Assembly (NCBI GenBank): GCA_016124385.1
Contig: WGNU01000003.1
Coordinates: 27,731-91,730 of the forward strand
DNA from: Alphaproteobacteria bacterium
GTDB lineage: Bacteria; Pseudomonadota; Alphaproteobacteria; Micropepsales; Micropepsaceae
Reading direction: 5' to 3'
Length of the DNA: 64,000 bases
The notes below the pieces were generated by a model. It saw only the letters and a program-made list of their open reading frames with translations, ran no database searches and was not told the DNA's origin. Below, in pieces: positions 7,828-32,446 of the stretch. The position numbers and the translations under genes are program-made. Each line of letters starts with the position of its first letter. Positions within the stretch are counted from its first letter, which is position 1.

Positions 7828-8195
7828 AAGTGTCAGATGGCCTGTAAGCCGGGTTCTGTCCCCGTTTCCGGGGGATGACCATTCCTCTGGGACGCTGATC
7901 GCTCAGCGCCTCGCGCGACCGACCCGAGCGACGAGCCGGAAACCGCCCATGTGCCGCTCCTATTTGGTCTTGCTCCCGGTGGGGCTTGCCGTGCCGTCTC
8001 TGTTGCCAGAGCCGCGGTGCGCTCTTACCGCACCGTTTCACCCTTGCCGGGACGAGCCCGGCGGTTTGTTTTCTGTGGCGCTATCCCTGAGGTCGCCCTC
8101 GCCGGGCGTTACCCGGCACCGTGCTTCCGTGGAGCCCGGACTTTCCTCCAGAGGCCGAAACCTCCAGCGGCCATCCGGCCATCTGACGGGTCTTA
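7828..8195 (-). ncRNA. rnpB: RNase P RNA, bacterial type A (ends approximate)
   Basis: The minus strand contains GGAGGAAAGTCCGGGCTCC (rc of 8131-8149), AAGGGTGAAACGGTGCGGTAAGAGCGCACC (rc of ~8016-8045) and GACAGAACCCGGCTTAC (rc of ~7844-7860). A P1 helix forms between GTCAGATGGCC (5' end, ~8177-8187) and GGCCATCTGAC (3' end, ~7832-7842). Confidence 0.93.
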
Positions 8196-23526: not shown

Positions 23527-24225
23527 TTGCGGCACGTTCTTATCCTTGCCCTTCTGATCTTCGCCTCGCCCGCGGCCGCGCGGGACTGGCACGGCGTGAC
23601 GCTCGACCGCGCGAAGATCATCCGCCCCGGGCTGCTCGAGGAAGCGCTGGGCGCGCTCACGTTCCACGCGGCCGTGATCCCGCAGCAGGACGCGATCGCC
23701 ATCATCGACTACGACTTGCCGTCGGATGAGCCGCGCCTGTTTCTCCTCGACCTCAAGACGGGCAAGGTGGAGGCGTTCCTCGTCGCGCATGGCCAGGGCT
23801 CCGATCCCGATCACGACGGGATGCTCGACAGCCTCTCGGACGTTCCGGGCTCGAACGCCTCGACGGCGGGCGCGTTCCTCACCGGCGAGACCTATTGCGG
23901 CGAGAACGGGCGGACGCTGCGGCTCTATGGGCTCGAGGAGCGCAACGCCAACGCCGCCACGCGCGCGATCGTCCTCCACTCGACCTATCTGAAAGGCCGC
24001 CTGCCCTATATGAGCCACGCCTTCATCGACGCGCACGGCCGGCCCGGCCGCTCCTGGGGCTGCTTCGTCCTGCCGCCCGAGGATCTGCGCCACGTGATCG
24101 AGCGGATCGGCGCCGGCCACCTCCTCTATGCGAACACGAAGCGCTTCCATAGCGGCAGCGCGGCGCCGGTGACGCCCCTGCCGGCCCTCGCGCCCCTTGC
24201 CCCCGGCACCTGCCCCTGGCCGTGA
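23527..24225 (+). CDS. L,D-transpeptidase catalytic-domain (YkuD_2-like) secreted protein
   Basis: Signal peptide. AIVLHSTYL...GRSWGCFVL resembles the His/Cys active-site motif of YkuD-fold enzymes. TTG start. Confidence 0.7.
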   Translation: MRHVLILALLIFASPAAARDWHGVTLDRAKIIRPGLLEEALGALTFHAAVIPQQDAIAIIDYDLPSDEPRLFLLDLKTGKVEAFLVAHGQGSDPDHDGMLDSLSDVPGSNASTAGAFLTGETYCGENGRTLRLYGLEERNANAATRAIVLHSTYLKGRLPYMSHAFIDAHGRPGRSWGCFVLPPEDLRHVIERIGAGHLLYANTKRFHSGSAAPVTPLPALAPLAPGTCPWP

Positions 24226-24283
24226 CTATTACGCCCGCCACTCCAATCGTTGCCAGGAGCGATTCAGCAGGACAGCATCGATC

Positions 24284-24928
24284 ATGGAAATCGCTCGATT
24301 CGTGCCCGACGAGATATCGCAAAAATTCGACGTTCGCGAGTGGCGAAACGGACTTGCTGTACTCGCTGGCGCGCATTCCAAGGAATTGAGCGACGTATAT
24401 TCAGTCTTAAAAAATTTCAGATTGTATAAATCATACATTCTCAAACCCGGAGGTAGCAAGTCACCCATCTCATCTTGGCTAGATAGTCAACTTTACAAAC
24501 TTGGTTGGAAAGAGAAAAAATTCGACACCAGCATCCTGGTAGACGGCATGGAATACAAGACGCCGACACACGCAGTCGATTGCTTTAAGAACCGTGTCGC
24601 TCTTGAAGTCGAATGGAACAACAAAGATCCATTCTTTGACAGAGATCTAAATAACTTTCGCCTTCTTTTCGAACTTCGAGCAATTGATGTTGGTATTATC
24701 ATAACGCGATGTGACGAGTTGCAGACAATTATCAAATCCCTCGGACGTGGCAGCAGCTATGGAGCTTCCACGACACATTTGTCCAAGCTCTTGCCACGAA
24801 TTGATGGTGGTGGCGGTGGCGGCTGCCCGATTGTTGTGTTCGGCATTCGTTCTTCGTGTTATGTGGATGAAAATCACCCAGAAACGTTTGGGACAGCTGG
24901 CCTGGAAGGAAGCACTGATGACGAGTAA
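24284..24928 (+). CDS. type II restriction endonuclease, BglII/BstYI/BamHI fold
   Basis: 214 aa from ATG 24284. The core VDCFKNRVALEVEWNNKDPFFDRDLNNF...IDVGIIITR aligns by eye with BglII IDFGKRDTLVEVQFSNYPFLLNN...VAIIIT. The D-x8-E-x-E catalytic spacing matches BglII D84/E93/Q95. Confidence 0.75.
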   Translation: MEIARFVPDEISQKFDVREWRNGLAVLAGAHSKELSDVYSVLKNFRLYKSYILKPGGSKSPISSWLDSQLYKLGWKEKKFDTSILVDGMEYKTPTHAVDCFKNRVALEVEWNNKDPFFDRDLNNFRLLFELRAIDVGIIITRCDELQTIIKSLGRGSSYGASTTHLSKLLPRIDGGGGGGCPIVVFGIRSSCYVDENHPETFGTAGLEGSTDDE

Positions 24929-25547
24929 TGACATGTTCGACAGTGTCAGAGGGACCAGATACCAGACAGTTCTCGCCGACCCGCCATGGCAGTTTCAAAA
25001 CCGTACTGGCAAGATGGCGCCAGAACATCGCAGGCTAAATCGCTATGGCACTATGGCTCTGGATCAAATTGCAGCGCTGCCGGTCTCAGACTTAGCTGCA
25101 CCGCGCTCACATCTTTATCTCTGGGTCCCGAACGCCCTCTTGCCAGAGGGAATTATAGTAATGAAATCTTGGGGTTTTACTTACAAAAGCAATATTGTGT
25201 GGCACAAAATTAGAAAAGATGGCGGATCTGACGGAAGGGGAGTTGGATTTTATTTTAGAAACGTCACAGAGCTTTGTCTTTTTGGGATTCGCGGTTCGAA
25301 TAACAGGACATTGAGCCCTGCACGTCGACAAGTGAACATGCTAGAGACTCGCAAGCGTGAGCACAGCCGTAAGCCAGACGAACTATATGAAATTATAGAA
25401 GCCTGTAGCCCCGGACCCTACCTCGAGCTATTCGCGCGCGGCACTAGGACCGGTTGGCATTCATGGGGTGAGCAGGCGAACGACACCTATGCACCGACCT
25501 GGAAGACCTACGCCAATCACTCGAGATCGCTCCAAGCTGCTGAGTAG
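24918..25547 (+). CDS. MT-A70 family N6-adenine DNA methyltransferase
   Basis: TVLADPPWQF (DPPW motif IV), YLWVPN, GFTYKSNIVWHK, EHSRKPDELYEIIE. ATG 24918 overlaps the endonuclease 3' end by 11 nt; an ATG at 24933 is an alternative start. Confidence 0.85.
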   Translation: MTSNDMFDSVRGTRYQTVLADPPWQFQNRTGKMAPEHRRLNRYGTMALDQIAALPVSDLAAPRSHLYLWVPNALLPEGIIVMKSWGFTYKSNIVWHKIRKDGGSDGRGVGFYFRNVTELCLFGIRGSNNRTLSPARRQVNMLETRKREHSRKPDELYEIIEACSPGPYLELFARGTRTGWHSWGEQANDTYAPTWKTYANHSRSLQAAE

Positions 25548-25592
25548 ATTGGGCCATTCGGAATGTCGGAGAAAGAACGGCCACCTCAGACG

Positions 25593-27251
25593 CTACCCCC
25601 GGGCGAATTTCTTGTACTTGATCCGGTGCGGCACCAGCGCCTCATCGCCCAGGCGCCGCGTGCGGTCGGCCATGTAGTCCTCGAAATTCCCTTCGAACCA
25701 TTCGACATGGCTATCGCCCTCGAAGGCGAGGATGTGCGTCGCGACGCGGTCGAGGAACCAGCGGTCATGGCTGATGATGACCGCGCAGCCCGCGTAATCC
25801 TCCAGCGCCTCTTCCAGCGCGCGCAGCGTATCGACGTCGAGATCGTTCGTCGGCTCGTCGAGCAGGAGAACGTTCGCGCCTGATTTCAGCATCTTCGCCA
25901 GATGCACGCGGTTGCGCTCGCCGCCCGAAAGCTGGCCGACCTTCTTCTGCTGATCGCCGCCCTTGAAGTTGAATGCCGCCGCATAGGCGCGAGAGTTCAT
26001 CTCCTTCTTGCCGAGATAGAGAATGTCGTTGCCGCCGGAGATTTCCTCCCAGACGGTCTTCTTGTCCTCGAGCGCGTCGCGCGACTGATCGACATAGCCG
26101 AGCTGCACGCTCTCGCCCACGGTGATCGTGCCGCCGTCCGGCTTGTCCTGGCCGGTGATCATGCGGAACAGCGTCGTTTTGCCCGCACCGTTCGGGCCGA
26201 TCACGCCGACGATGCCGCCGGGTGGCAGCTTGAACGTCAGATCATCGATCAGCAGCCGCTCGCCGAAGCCCTTCTTCAGATGCTCGAAATCGACGACCCG
26301 CGTGCCCAGCCGCTCGGCGATCGGAATGATGATCTGCGCGGTCTGCGGCGCCTTCTCGGACGCCTTTTGCACCAGATCCTCATAGCGCTGGTAGCGCGCC
26401 TTGTTCTTGGCCTGCCGCGCCTTGGGGGACGCGGAGATCCATTCCTGCTCGCGCGCGAGGGTGCGCTGGCGTGCCTCCTCCTCGCGGCCTTCCTGGGCGA
26501 GCCGCTTCTGCTTCTGCGCCAGCCACGACGAGTAATTGCCCTCGTAGGGGATGCCCTGCCCCCGGTCGAGCTCGAGAATCCAGCCCGTGACATTGTCGAG
26601 GAAGTAGCGGTCATGCGTGACGATGAGGATTGCACCCGGATAGGCGCGCAGATGGCCTTCCAGCCACGCGACGGATTCGGCGTCCAGATGGTTCGTCGGC
26701 TCGTCGAGCAGCAGAAGGTCGGGCTTGGAAAGCAGCAGCTGGCAGAGCGCGACGCGCCGCTTCTCGCCGCCTGAAAGGCTCTCGACGTCGGCCTCGTCCG
26801 GCGGACAGCGCAGCGCGTCCATCGCCTGATCGACCTGGGAATCCAGATCCCAAAGGCCCTGCGCCTCGATCTCGTCCTGGAGCTTGGCCATCTCATCGGC
26901 CGTCTCGTCGGTGTAGTTCGCCGCGATCTCGTTATAGCGGTCGAGGATCGCCTTCTTTGCCGCGACCCCTTCCATCACGTTGTCGCGGACCGATTTCGAG
27001 GGATCAAGTTTGGGTTCCTGCGGCAGGTAGCCGACGCGCGCGCCCTCCGCCGCGAAGGCTTCGCCGGTGAAATCGCTGTCGAGCCCCGCCATGATCTTGA
27101 GGAGCGTCGACTTGCCCGCGCCGTTGACGCCCAGAACGCCGATTTTCGCACCCGGGTAGAACGACAGGAAGATGTCTTTCAGGACCTGCTTGCCCCCCGC
27201 ATAGGTCTTCGAGAGCTTCTTCATCACGTAGACATATTGGTAGGACGCCAT
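25593..27251 (-). CDS. ettA: energy-dependent translational throttle protein EttA (ABC-F)
   Basis: From ATG 27251: [51 protein letters not shown]. Two ABC cassettes with LSGGE signatures. The track extension to 27410 is rejected. Confidence 0.95.
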
Positions 27252-27691
27252 TGGCGGGTGCCTCCCGGAAGCATGACGGCGGATGCGGAAAGGGTGGATG
27301 TTTAACGAAGGCGGCGCGCGCCCGCAACGACGCGCGTGGAGGTCCAAGCCCCCGTATTCCCCGCCCGATCGAAAGGCCTGCCTGTTAAGATCTGGCGCCC
27401 CAATTTTCATGCCTGGGTTGCAGCCTCCAGCCCTTTCTAAACAAGGTCTTGATACCGGCGCGGTGGTGGTTGGCGCGCAAATCCGCGCTCACCGCGTGTT
27501 GGAGCGACGCTTTCGGTCGCTCCCGGCCTCCGGCGCGACATGACCGGAAGCGTCCCGCCTTTAACGAATCCAGCGCCGTGTGCAACGGACGGTCGAAGAT
27601 CGCCCGAGCGCGTTAACCCAGATGTAGGACCATCGGACTTCTTATCGCGGGGCGAACCAACACATCCGCAGACAAGACCCCGGGGGAAACC

Positions 27692-29374
27692 ATGTTCGGA
27701 TTGAAGCTGTTCGGTCAGCCGAATGACCAGGCTGCCGCAGTATTGACGGCGATCGGACGCTCGCAGGCCGTTATCGAATTCACGCCGGATGGCACGATCC
27801 TGACCGCGAACGAGAATTTCCTTCAGGCGCTCGGCTACACGCTGCCGGAAATTCAGGGCAAGCATCATTCGATGTTCGTCGAGCCCGCCCAGCGCGAGAC
27901 CTCGGCCTATCAGGCCTTTTGGGCAAAGCTTGGCCGTGGCGAGTTCGATGCGGCGGAATATAAGCGCATCGCCAAGGGCGGCCGCGAAGTGTGGATCCAG
28001 GCGAGCTACAATCCCGTGCAGGATGCCTCGGGCCGCGTCGTCAAGGTCGTCAAATTCGCCACCGACATCACCGAGGCCAAGCGCCGCAACGCCAATTACG
28101 AAGGCCAGCTGCGCGCCATCGACAAGGCGCAGGCCATCATCGAGTTCGACCTCGAGGGCAAGATCCTCTCGGCCAACCAGAACTTCCTCAACGCGATGGG
28201 CTACAGCCGCGACGAGATCATCGGCAAGCATCATTCTATGTTCGTCGAGCCGAGCTACCGCGACAGCCGCGAGTACCGCGAGTTCTGGGCGAAACTCGGC
28301 CGGGGCGAGTTCGACGCGGCGGAATATAAGCGCATCGCCAAGGGCGGCCGCGAAGTGTGGATCCAGGCGTCCTACAACCCCATCCTCGAGGCGAGCGGCA
28401 AGCCCTTCAAGGTCGTGAAATTCGCGATCGATGTGACCGATCAGAAGCTGCGCACGGCCGACTATGAAGGCCAGCTCTCGGCGATCGGGAAGGCGATGGC
28501 GGTCATCGAGTTCGAGCTCGACGGCACGATCCGCACCGCCAACGACAATTTCCTGGCCGCGCTCGGCTATTCGCTGAGCGAGATCAAAGGCAAGCACCAT
28601 TCGATGTTCGTGGACGGTGAAACGCGCTCATCGACCGAGTATCGCGAGTTCTGGCCGAGCCTGGCCCGCGGCGAATTCAAGAGCGCGGAGTACAAGCGCA
28701 TCGCCAAGGGCGGCCGCGAGATCTACATCCAGGCATCTTACAACCCGATCCTCGATCTGAACGGCAAGCCCTACAAGGTCGTCAAGTTCGCGAGCGACGT
28801 AACGAAGCAGGTGCTCGCGCGCCTGCGCTCCGAGCATGTGAGTCGCATGGTCGAGAGTGTCGCTTCGGCGTCGGAGGAATTGAACGCCTCCGTCAACGAG
28901 ATCGCCGAGAGCATGGTGAAGTCGCGCGACATGGCCGGCATCGCGAGCAATCAGGTGCAGGACGCGAGCGGCTCGACCACCCGCCTCACCGAGGCGGCGC
29001 AGTCCATGGGCGGCATCGTCGATCTCATCTCCTCGATCACGGGCCAGATCAATTTGCTCGCGCTCAACGCGACGATCGAATCGGCCCGCGCGGGCGAGGC
29101 CGGCAAGGGCTTCGCGGTGGTCGCGAACGAGGTGAAAAACCTCGCCACCCAGGCGAAATCGGCGACCGAGCAGATCACCCGCGAGATCGATTCCATGCGC
29201 GGCATCTCCGACGACGTGGTGGCCGCGCTCGACCGCATCCGCCAGTCGATTGAATCGGTCAGCTCCTACGTCAACACCACGGCGGCTGCGGTGCAGGAAC
29301 AGACGGCGGTGACAACCGAGATGTCCTCCAACATGCAGCGCGTGGCCAGCGAAGCGGCGGCGATGGGGGCCTGA
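27692..29374 (+). CDS. soluble methyl-accepting chemotaxis protein with three tandem PAS modules
   Basis: No TM segment. Three 122-aa PAS repeats, then the MCP signalling domain ([44 protein letters not shown]). Confidence 0.92.
27731..28828 (+). repeat. three tandem 366-bp coding repeats (PAS modules); bounds approximate
   Basis: ATCGA(A/G)TTC anchor points at 27773, 28139 and 28505, exactly 366 nt apart. Modules 1 and 2 share a 66-nt stretch differing at one base (from ~27937 and ~28303). Confidence 0.85.
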
Positions 29375-31257: not shown

Positions 31258-32386
31258 GTGGTGGGCCCGGCAGGAACAAACTGGGCACTGGCTCATCTGC
31301 ATTCGCTGGCACCCACACCGCCGGCCAGCGCGGGACAGAGCCTAGCCTAAGCGTTTCGCCAACGTAGAATGGTCGTTCGCTTGGGCCGAATTCTGCTGCA
31401 TTCATGTTCTTTCCGGATAGCGACGCATGAACGAGATCGAACAAGAGTGCATCATCTTGAACTCGGCGTGGAAAATGATCGACGGCATGGTCAACTGGGC
31501 CATGTTCGTGAAACACGGTCACGTCGAACCGACCGATATGATGTTCCAAACTAGCCATTGCAGCGAACTGTTCATCATCCGGCTCGGTGACTTCTTGTCT
31601 CAACTCCGCGCATTCAATGGGCGGCCGGTTCCACTCGGCCTGCAAGCGGCTCCATCGAATGCCCGCCCGTCCGATCTGACCTTTCTCTATTATCTGCGAC
31701 AGGTGTGCGCGAAGCCTCACCTCGCGCCGGAAGCATCGAACCTGAGTACTCACACCGAGGCATTCGCTACCTGGCTCGAAGGAGACTTCGTCACCCAAGG
31801 CGTCAACTTGTCCGCGATCAATGTCGTCGCCGACCTACGTGTCACGCGCTATCGATACCTCAAGATTTGTGGTGACATCGCAAAACACAATCTGGCACGG
31901 CTTGAAACGAACGTCCGTTACATACAAAACCTGCTCCAAGCCAGCGGCCATCCCGTCGGCGAGCAAGAAGCATACCTGACGGTTGCAGATTTCTACGAAT
32001 GGTTCCAAAGGAAAATCTTCATCTATCACTCAAGCCAAATTGCTGAATTCCTGAACAACATTCGATGGGCGATCTTCGAGTTCCTGCAGCCTGAGTTTGA
32101 CCGGTCGTACCATCAAAAAGAAGGCTACTCACTGAGTACGCCTTTGTATGGCTATCACTATCCGGATGGCTGCAACGAGCCGCTGGCATGCGCGATGTAT
32201 TGGGATCTGATGAACCGGGTGCGCGGACGGCCGTGGCTGCACCGTTTCATTGTGTCGGACTCGTTTAAGGCGCTTTACTAGTTACAAAGCGGACTCCAGG
32301 ACGATGTCCAAGTCGCGGAGGCCGCCTGTGTTTGCCGCGTCACTGAGATTTGCGATGTACGTTCCAGTGTGGTGGGCCCGGCAGGA
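31258..32386. mobile_element. integrase-less tRNA-associated genomic islet bounded by 18-bp direct repeats
   Basis: GTGGTGGGCCCGGCAGGA occurs at 31258-31275 and again at 32369-32386, the latter covering the tRNA 3' end (32370-32386) plus one flanking base. The interior is AT-richer than the flanks and holds one ORF. Confidence 0.7.
31427..32281 (+). CDS. orphan hypothetical protein (284 aa), islet cargo
   Basis: Long uninterrupted ORF with normal amino-acid composition and atypical (lower GC) codon usage. I recognise no motif. Confidence 0.6.
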   Translation: MNEIEQECIILNSAWKMIDGMVNWAMFVKHGHVEPTDMMFQTSHCSELFIIRLGDFLSQLRAFNGRPVPLGLQAAPSNARPSDLTFLYYLRQVCAKPHLAPEASNLSTHTEAFATWLEGDFVTQGVNLSAINVVADLRVTRYRYLKICGDIAKHNLARLETNVRYIQNLLQASGHPVGEQEAYLTVADFYEWFQRKIFIYHSSQIAEFLNNIRWAIFEFLQPEFDRSYHQKEGYSLSTPLYGYHYPDGCNEPLACAMYWDLMNRVRGRPWLHRFIVSDSFKALY

Positions 32387-32446
32387 CTCGAACCTGCGAC
32401 CAGACCGTTATGAGCGGCCCGCTCTAACCAGCTGAGCTACAGGCCC
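32370..32446 (-). tRNA. tRNA with CAU anticodon (elongator tRNA-Met, or tRNA-Ile2 if lysidine-modified)
   Basis: 77 nt: GGGCCTG TA GCTC AGCTGGTTA GAGC G GGCCG CTCATAA CGGTC TGGTC GCAGG TTCGAGT CCTGC CGGGCCC A CCA. It forms a full cloverleaf with encoded CCA. There is no C1:A72 mismatch, so it is not an initiator. Confidence 0.95.

Follow-up and report, generated by a model that had tools for sequence, protein, structure and literature searches.

A stretch of 64 kb of alphaproteobacterial DNA, to which we refer as the window, carries at positions 24226–25592 a cassette of two open reading frames (ORFs), ORF1 and ORF2, predicted to encode a restriction endonuclease (REase) and an MT-A70 methyltransferase, respectively. 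This cassette is a further member of a known and characterised family of Type IIP restriction-modification (R-M) systems, whose pairing of partners is already in the literature. We regard it as quite probable that the cassette constitutes a horizontally acquired, self-contained module of the type of Nph3I—an R-M system of a Nitratiruptor phage—with RGATCY as its likely site and N6-methyladenine (6mA) as its likely modification. In such a module, as we infer for this organism, a homodimer of the ORF1 product would cut unmethylated 5'-RGATCY-3', the most likely site, at a position that, like the activity itself and the exact specificity, is a prediction; and the ORF2 product, with S-adenosylmethionine (SAM), would convert the adenine of RGATCY to 6mA on both strands. 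That methylation would block ORF1 and shield the host DNA, incoming unmethylated phage or plasmid DNA would be cleaved, and the chromosome would be left exposed if the cassette were lost, which dependence would amount to addiction. As to the mode of regulation, the endonuclease gene and then the methylase gene would be co-transcribed, with no controller protein taking part.

Relationship to Nph3I and other known systems

The evidence that carries this reading is the kinship of the two ORFs with their orthologues R.Nph3I (NRS3_08, BCD83124.1) and M.Nph3I (NRS3_07, BCD83123.1), both encoded by Nitratiruptor phage NrS-3 (Zhang et al., 2023, mSystems, PMC10734518). Over 190 amino acids (aa), ORF1 aligns with R.Nph3I at 61% identity and without any gap (E 9e-86); the alignment of ORF2 with M.Nph3I extends over 201 aa, with an identity of 66% and a single gap (E 6e-108). 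Cell-free R.Nph3I, which enzyme contains an Endonuc-BglII domain, cut AGATCT, GGATCC, AGATCC and GGATCT and was blocked completely by 6mA, and M.Nph3I converts RGATCY to RG(6mA)TCY (PMC10734518). SMRT sequencing (in real time, on single molecules) found RGATCY to be 100% methylated in both the NrS-3 phage and its lysogen, and the closest non-putative REBASE methylase was M.Dor12838I, with RGATCY as its site (Yoshida-Takashima et al., 2022, PMC9723563). The Nph3I locus (L088 in our numbering of loci) resembles the cassette in its order as well: an Endonuc-BglII REase gene followed by a co-oriented MT-A70 methylase gene, without a controller protein, in what is likewise a horizontally acquired mobile cassette. 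The two nevertheless differ in that Nph3I is phage-borne, whereas the window copy, known from sequence, is chromosomal between ldt and ettA; and in that the genes of Nph3I lie 12 nt apart, whereas those of the window overlap by 11 nt because ORF1 has an 18-aa C-terminal tail. The earlier note on this DNA, made from the sequence alone, had considered the specificity unknown and the system novel, both of which claims fall with Nph3I, a close homologous pair characterised as RGATCY-specific and 6mA-sensitive; its guess of a GATC-containing palindrome, for its part, fits that site.

ORF1 is, judging from its sequence and its model, a BglII/BstYI-family endonuclease of the PD-(D/E)XK type with a predicted alpha/beta fold. 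The Pfam family PF09195 (Endonuc-BglII) matches the protein along the entire model (positions 1–163 of 163; E 6.4e-43, 146.7 bits against a cut-off of 26), and an AlphaFold2 (AF2) model reached a predicted local distance difference test score (pLDDT) of 80.4 and a predicted template-modelling score (pTM) of 0.81. When that model was compared with the PDB by Foldseek, the sole significant match was BstYI (1vrr/2p0j/1sdo; E 9e-8 to 5e-7, TM 0.59–0.66), with BglII itself being absent from the list of matches. A single-sequence phmmer search of the PDB with ORF1 gave no match; a profile of the ORF1 clade reached BstYI weakly, and a broader profile did so with an E of 5e-6. In the alignment from the latter, the GWKE motif was in register and D99, E108 and E110 of ORF1 corresponded to D119, E128 and Q130 of BstYI. 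The D-x8-E-x-E pattern that the earlier note had recognised, which falls within residues 98–111 (VDCFKNRVALEVEW), is therewith borne out, together with the BamHI-like glutamate. That note had superimposed the pattern on the catalytic stretch of BglII, quoted there as IDFGKRDTLVEVQ; we confirmed the equivalent alignment with BstYI instead. The last catalytic position is Glu in BamHI and Gln in BglII (PMC4081073), and ORF1 has the Glu of the BamHI variant. All four catalytic residues—E77, D99, E108 and E110—are invariant in 21 members of the ORF1 clade. A glycine-rich loop (GGGGGGCP, residues 175–182), in which the AF2 confidence is low, is kept throughout the REase clade, R.Nph3I included, and the C-terminus bears an 18-residue extension that is unusual in comparison with most homologues. 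On the precedent of R.Nph3I, ORF1 would cleave, in dependence on Mg2+, within a palindrome having GATC as its core. A transfer of the DNA-contact residues of BstYI to ORF1 (e.g., K133 = K114) was also considered and was rejected as unreliable at 20% identity, because the members of the family read DNA differently (PMC2731914).

BstYI and ORF1 have in common the catalytic layout GWKE...D...E-x-[E/Q] and also, if the prediction is correct, the site RGATCY; BstYI is nonetheless only 18–20% identical to ORF1, and its last catalytic residue is Gln where ORF1 has Glu. With regard to methylation, BstYI is insensitive to 6mA, whereas its isoschizomer MflI is 6mA-sensitive, as is R.Nph3I (PMC10734518).

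With the BglII system the cassette shares a nuclease belonging to PF09195 and a palindrome with a GATC core. The BglII R-M system recognises AGATCT and comprises the N4-cytosine methylase M.BglII and the controller C.BglII, whereas the partner in the window is an N6-adenine MT-A70 enzyme with DPPW and there is no controller gene; therefore, we place the cassette in the BglII nuclease family, but do not regard it as a BglII system sensu stricto. In addition, BglII cuts AGATCT only, whereas R.Nph3I cuts all the RGATCY sequences (PMC10734518).

The assignment of ORF2 to the MT-A70 adenine methylases, likewise proposed earlier, is upheld by Pfam PF05063 (MT-A70), which matched positions 1–172 of 172 (E 5.9e-33, 114.6 bits against a cut-off of 23.9), and the PADLOC model MTase_II (Type II) also matched the protein (E 1.2e-90, 301.7 bits). 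No REase model of PADLOC matched ORF1, and NCBIfam gave no match for either ORF. The motifs LADPPWQF, YLWVPN and EHSRKPDELYE are all present, as are the peptide motifs previously quoted for ORF1. The DPPW of motif IV (D21-P22-P23-W24) is invariant in 18–19 homologues, including the partners of divergent REases, and besides that tetrapeptide some 85–100 positions are invariant among the homologues. The motif, which precedes the cofactor-binding region and is located close to the N-terminus, in the beta permutation, aligns with the DPPW of the MT-A70 proteins 7f4r/7f4l, which were matched in the PDB with an E of 4e-20, METTL3/14 following at ~1e-12. An AF2 model of ORF2 built from a shallow alignment had a poor pLDDT of 43.4, and a Rossmann-like MT-A70 fold is supported indirectly, through these sequence matches to solved MT-A70 domains. 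By analogy with M.Nph3I, ORF2 would carry out SAM-dependent N6-adenine methylation of DNA.

Two further groups of MT-A70 enzymes may be compared with ORF2. The orphan enzymes M.EfaBMDam (from Tn1549), p32 of Serratia phage BZS1 and M.EcoGV methylate the adenine of GATC (PMC7556043, PMC10810198); these belong to the same Pfam family and have the same beta-class DPPW chemistry, but are only ~30–34% identical to ORF2, are solitary, without an REase, and act on plain GATC. Among solved structures, the best sequence matches of ORF2 are the eukaryotic MT-A70 proteins (Tetrahymena MTA1, METTL3/METTL14, METTL4; E 4e-20 to 1e-12), which enzymes, however, are heterodimers with accessory domains that act on RNA or on ApT in DNA, whereas ORF2 is a bare catalytic domain of 209 aa in an R-M operon.

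A low-GC insert with a conserved gene pair

The cassette is of foreign composition and was probably acquired horizontally. Its guanine-plus-cytosine (GC) content is 0.493, compared with 0.666 ± 0.027 in the 44 other segments of the same size in the window (z = -6.5), and the low-GC insert to which the earlier note had called attention is the global GC minimum of the entire 64 kb. The GC at third codon positions is 0.47 in ORF1 and 0.52 in ORF2 versus 0.91 in the flanking ldt and 0.84 in ettA, which neighbours converge on the cassette from either side. At the left edge, over 24180–24225, the 30-nt GC sinks to 0.57 from a value of 0.87, and at the right edge it recovers around 25575–25635. A cassette GC lower than that of the host was found in 61 of 70 loci, and with its gap of 18 points the window copy ranks among the most extreme, which magnitude suggests a recent arrival. 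An inspection of the ORFs revealed no integrase, transposase or helix-turn-helix (HTH) gene in the insert, nor any HTH ORF beside it; and direct or inverted repeats across the insert ends were limited to short matches at chance level. These results agree with what the earlier note had stated, the absence of a controller protein included. Since the window contains the gene for the RNase P RNA, a core gene, its location is chromosomal.

The comparison of the ldt–ettA region across relatives did not confirm the insertion. An independent sample (a Logan contig) contains the identical ldt–R-M arrangement, and where ettA would follow, it has a truncated ORF on the minus strand; an empty site was not encountered, since a search with the ldt protein returned no relative of more than 50% identity except that same insert-bearing Logan copy. 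One ldt relative at 50% identity stood in a different synteny.

ORF1 and ORF2 are co-oriented and overlap by the 11 nt that had been reported (24918–24928; the ATG of ORF2 at 24918 and the TAA of ORF1 at 24926–24928). In the leader, a promoter-like TTGCCA (24250–24255) is separated by a 17-nt spacer from CAGCAT (24273–24278), which hexamer ends 5 nt before the ATG of ORF1 and might, together with the former, function as a promoter. Similar -10-like elements, CAGCAT or TAGCAT and often within CATCATG, precede the REase start by 5–9 nt in the alphaproteobacterial loci L005, L006, L010, L012 and L015; the location of such an element so near the start, without a Shine–Dalgarno (SD) sequence, points tentatively to an REase mRNA that is leaderless or has a short leader. 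The SD of ORF1 is weak and close to background, and that of ORF2, GGAAGGAAG, lies inside the 3' end of ORF1; the SD:anti-SD energies in the window are -4.0 for the REase and -5.7 for the methylase, and the better ribosome-binding site of the methylase may tilt expression toward protection. A scan for promoters and terminators gave nothing above the shuffled expectation, and the right spacer has no convincing terminator. A palindrome upstream of the REase, in the capacity of a methylation-sensitive operator, was not enriched (27 GATC observed, 29 expected).

The two ORFs each have thousands of relatives at 65–78% identity. When one genome per species was scanned, those of ORF1 were present in at least 573 genomes, the carriers listed including Alpha-, Gamma- and Deltaproteobacteria, Bacteroidota, Planctomycetota, Verrucomicrobiota, Spirochaetes, Chloroflexi, Actinobacteria and Bacilli. 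Among the best 80 loci, an MT-A70 gene stood directly beside the REase gene in 78—co-oriented downstream in 74 and convergent in four—and one of the other two was cut by the end of its contig. Relatives occurred furthermore on 42 viral contigs of IMG/VR, 30 of them with the MT-A70 partner; on several plasmids, with that partner in most cases; and in the cultured phages Lo5R7ANS of Mesorhizobium, where the gene is beside an integrase, and NrS-2/3 of Nitratiruptor. The names in RefSeq are 'BglII/BstYI family type II restriction endonuclease' and 'MT-A70 family methyltransferase'. MT-A70 is thus the usual partner of the PF09195 nucleases in the sequence databases and not the non-canonical one that the earlier note had supposed, and MT-A70 methylases in "BglII R-M systems" were already remarked upon by Iyer et al. 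in 2015 (PMC4738411). No third gene, such as one for a C protein, was conserved next to the pair, the largest cluster of flanking ORFs comprising five of the 78 loci; and since, in addition, the flanking contexts of the relatives are unrelated, the pair is a self-contained mobile module.

Certain individual loci deserve mention. On plasmids L089, L091, L092 and L095 the cassette adjoins toxin–antitoxin genes (YafQ/DinJ, VapC, RelE/ParE, PIN), which proximity is consistent with a clustering of addiction and defence modules. In Candidatus Azophilus lithoversatilis (L079, 5977–6768) a 263-aa REase homologue has no adjoining methylase, the next gene being MoCF-biosynthesis/FAD-synthase-like, so that this nuclease is apparently solitary. 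In the Arthrobacter plasmid pA48BH1 (L090, 2393–3307), conversely, a 304-aa MT-A70 homologue, 68.6% identical to ORF2, stands without an adjoining REase beside a gene for an AAA-family ATPase and may be an orphan or part of a different system.

Target site and competing explanations

To approach the site from the side of composition, we sorted the GATC sequences into four classes by the purine or pyrimidine nature of their flanks, after removing the cassette from the window. Depletion was strongest for RGATCY, both in the window, with an observed/expected ratio (O/E) of 0.73 (z -2.6), and in the flanks pooled from 78 carrier genomes, with an O/E of 0.74 (z -6.5), compared with 0.89 for YGATCR; a bias in this direction is what exposure to an RGATCY nuclease would be expected to leave in a genome. 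The cassette itself contains three RGATCY sequences (Table 1), which on the specificity of R.Nph3I (PMC10734518) would be targets.

Several points weigh against the Nph3I-type reading. RGATCY is depleted to no more than a moderate degree, and depletion is general among palindromic hexamers. In a general scan for palindrome avoidance, a scan having no control, all four NGATCN hexamers were in the top 8 of 64; the sorting by flank class is the more specific test. BstYI, BglII and BamHI use 'surprisingly distinct recognition strategies' (PMC2731914), and an identity of 61% usually, though not always, preserves the specificity of an REase, so that a few changes might suffice to make the site narrower or different. 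In vitro, M.Nph3I had a strong preference for GGATCC (PMC10734518), so that the specificity of the methylases of the family is not fully settled. As to the acquisition, the failure to find an empty site, which we attribute to a lineage without close sequenced relatives, means that the insertion is not demonstrated by comparison. Over 81 loci, the SD energy averages -5.44 kcal/mol for the methylase and -3.73 for the REase, and is stronger for the methylase in 54 (Wilcoxon p 1.6e-4), which bias represents a modest statistical trend on approximate start codons. Finally, the organism is known only as a metagenome-assembled genome, where an activity on RGATCY is deduced from homologues.

If, as an alternative, the same R-M module acted on another site—plain GATC, the subset AGATCT or GGATCC, or some other A-containing palindrome—the preference of M.Nph3I for GGATCC (PMC10734518) and the methylation of plain GATC by orphan prokaryotic MT-A70 enzymes (PMC7556043) would both be accommodated, and it is known that a few substitutions can change the specificity of an REase and that members of the BglII family read DNA in different manners (PMC2731914). 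The partners of the relatives point in the same direction. Methylases 63–75% identical to ORF2 adjoin BglII-family nucleases that are either 45–69% or only 27–34% identical to ORF1, and might, in the latter circumstance, cover a core common to different outer-base requirements. We nevertheless judge a different site to be rather unlikely, because ORF1 belongs to the tight clade of R.Nph3I, aligns with that enzyme at 61% without gaps and has all the clade-invariant residues in common; because the carrier genomes deplete RGATCY the most, and not YGATCR; and because a second relative with an assignment in REBASE, M.Dor12838I, likewise has RGATCY (PMC9723563).

The divergent nucleases include those of Xanthomonas (pXfc37), Rhizobium rhizogenes (pRi), Comamonas, Roseomonas, Roseivivax and Stappia, besides those of many viral contigs; and these (L089, L091, L093–L096, L129–L137) are often convergent with the methylase and longer, with ~270–290 aa. 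One conserved MT-A70 methylase hence appears to serve several deeply divergent lineages of nucleases. The exchange occurs in the opposite sense as well: some nucleases of the ORF1 clade, 48–58% identical to ORF1, are paired not with MT-A70 but with a ~400-aa adenine methylase of the D12 class (DPPY), as on a Dyadobacter plasmid (L086), on an Acinetobacter plasmid (L092) and on ~11 viral contigs (including L101–L107, L111 and L115), an HTH regulator being annotated beside the nuclease on the two plasmids. Since all the partners, MT-A70 and D12 alike, are adenine-N6 methylases, we argue that the protection comes from methylation of adenine in a core site that is shared. A bolder proposal would be that ORF1, or the nucleases at 27–34%, recognise sites other than RGATCY and that the conserved methylase is a universal antidote around which the nucleases are exchanged, an idea that we consider doubtful; if true, it would offer a natural series for the evolution of REase specificity under a fixed methylation shield.

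The cassette might, alternatively, be a decaying or domesticated remnant, with the endonuclease inactive or silent and the methylase working at most as an orphan epigenetic enzyme, in view of the frequent decay of R-M cassettes after transfer, of the unusual 18-residue C-terminal extension of ORF1, of the lack of a recognisable strong promoter or terminator and of the existence of solitary homologues such as the REase of L079 and the methylase of L090. This possibility appears improbable to us in that both ORFs span the full Pfam models (163/163 and 172/172), all the invariant and catalytic residues are intact, the identical cassette is present in an independent sample and the very large GC gap suggests a recent arrival that would have left little time for decay. 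Still more remote is the notion that ORF2 is an RNA methyltransferase—acting on 16S rRNA, for example—beside an unrelated nuclease ORF1, as might be thought from the MT-A70 enzyme of Stx phage PA8, which with its partner PNB-2 prefers 16S rRNA (PMC10810198), and from the eukaryotic MT-A70 structures closest to ORF2, some of which are RNA methylases: the identity of ORF2 is ~32% with the PA8 enzyme but 66% with M.Nph3I, a DNA methylase of RGATCY in vitro and in vivo; a third gene like that of PNB-2 is not conserved; and the near-obligate adjacency of an REase makes sense only for a DNA methylase.

Annotation and other features of the window

With the Nph3I-type module as the preferred reading, the gene pair, whose products are MBI1238446.1 (ORF1) and MBI1238447.1 (ORF2) of an uncultured alphaproteobacterium in GenBank, may be renamed as a predicted RGATCY-specific, 6mA-sensitive Type IIP R-M system of the Nph3I type, in place of the current 'restriction endonuclease / S-adenosylmethionine-binding protein'. 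The locus would in addition constitute a record of a recent horizontal acquisition in a poorly sampled alphaproteobacterial lineage; beyond annotation, however, its importance is little. The association of MT-A70 with divergent nucleases and the D12 swaps should be mildly useful to specialists in R-M systems and for the prokaryotic roots of the eukaryotic m6A writers, which comparison of partners extends published work and does not overturn it. The methylome supplements of Blow et al. (2016) contain no entry for this R-M family or for the carrier organisms. The coordinates are collected in Table 1.

Table 1. Positions, in the numbering of the window, of the cassette, its elements and its neighbours.
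Feature	Positions	Strand	Basis or detail
Bacterial RNase P RNA, class A	7829–8186	-	Core gene; 315.8 bits
ldt, YkuD_2 L,D-transpeptidase	23527–24225	+	Left neighbour
Left junction and 5' leader, 58 nt	24226–24283	+	GC drop
ORF1, predicted restriction endonuclease, BglII/BstYI family, 214 aa	24284–24928	+	Pfam, fold, homology
Predicted catalytic core of ORF1	24512–24613	+	E77 24512–24514 (GWKE), D99 24578–24580, E108 24605–24607, E110 24611–24613
Predicted target sites in ORF1	AGATCC 24625–24630, AGATCT 24643–24648	.	Pattern count
Glycine-rich loop of ORF1	24806–24829	+	Invariant columns G175–P182
Shine–Dalgarno of ORF2	24904–24912	+	
ORF2, predicted MT-A70-family (beta-class) N6-adenine DNA methyltransferase, 209 aa	24918–25547	+	Pfam, homology
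Catalytic motif IV of ORF2	24978–24989	+	Codons read
Predicted target site in ORF2	GGATCT 25224–25229	.	Pattern count
Right junction, 45-nt spacer from the ORF2 stop to the convergent ettA stop	25548–25592	+	
ABC-F/EttA-like gene (ettA)	25593–27410	-	Right neighbour

Three other features of the window came to our attention. The EttA-like ORF, if read from its first ATG, has an N-terminal extension of ~53 residues without any homology signal, and the Met at 27251 is probably where the protein really begins. The methyl-accepting chemotaxis protein encoded at 27692–29374 (+) contains three near-identical tandem PAS units, in which an 18-residue peptide recurs, an arrangement that resembles an internal triplication of recent date. 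Another patch of low GC, less pronounced than the cassette, at 31300–32446 (GC 0.50–0.58 versus 0.67) contains a 284-aa ORF (31427–32281, +) with no match in Pfam and directly abuts a tRNA-Met gene (32370–32446, -); this patch may represent a further small island, acquired at a tRNA gene.

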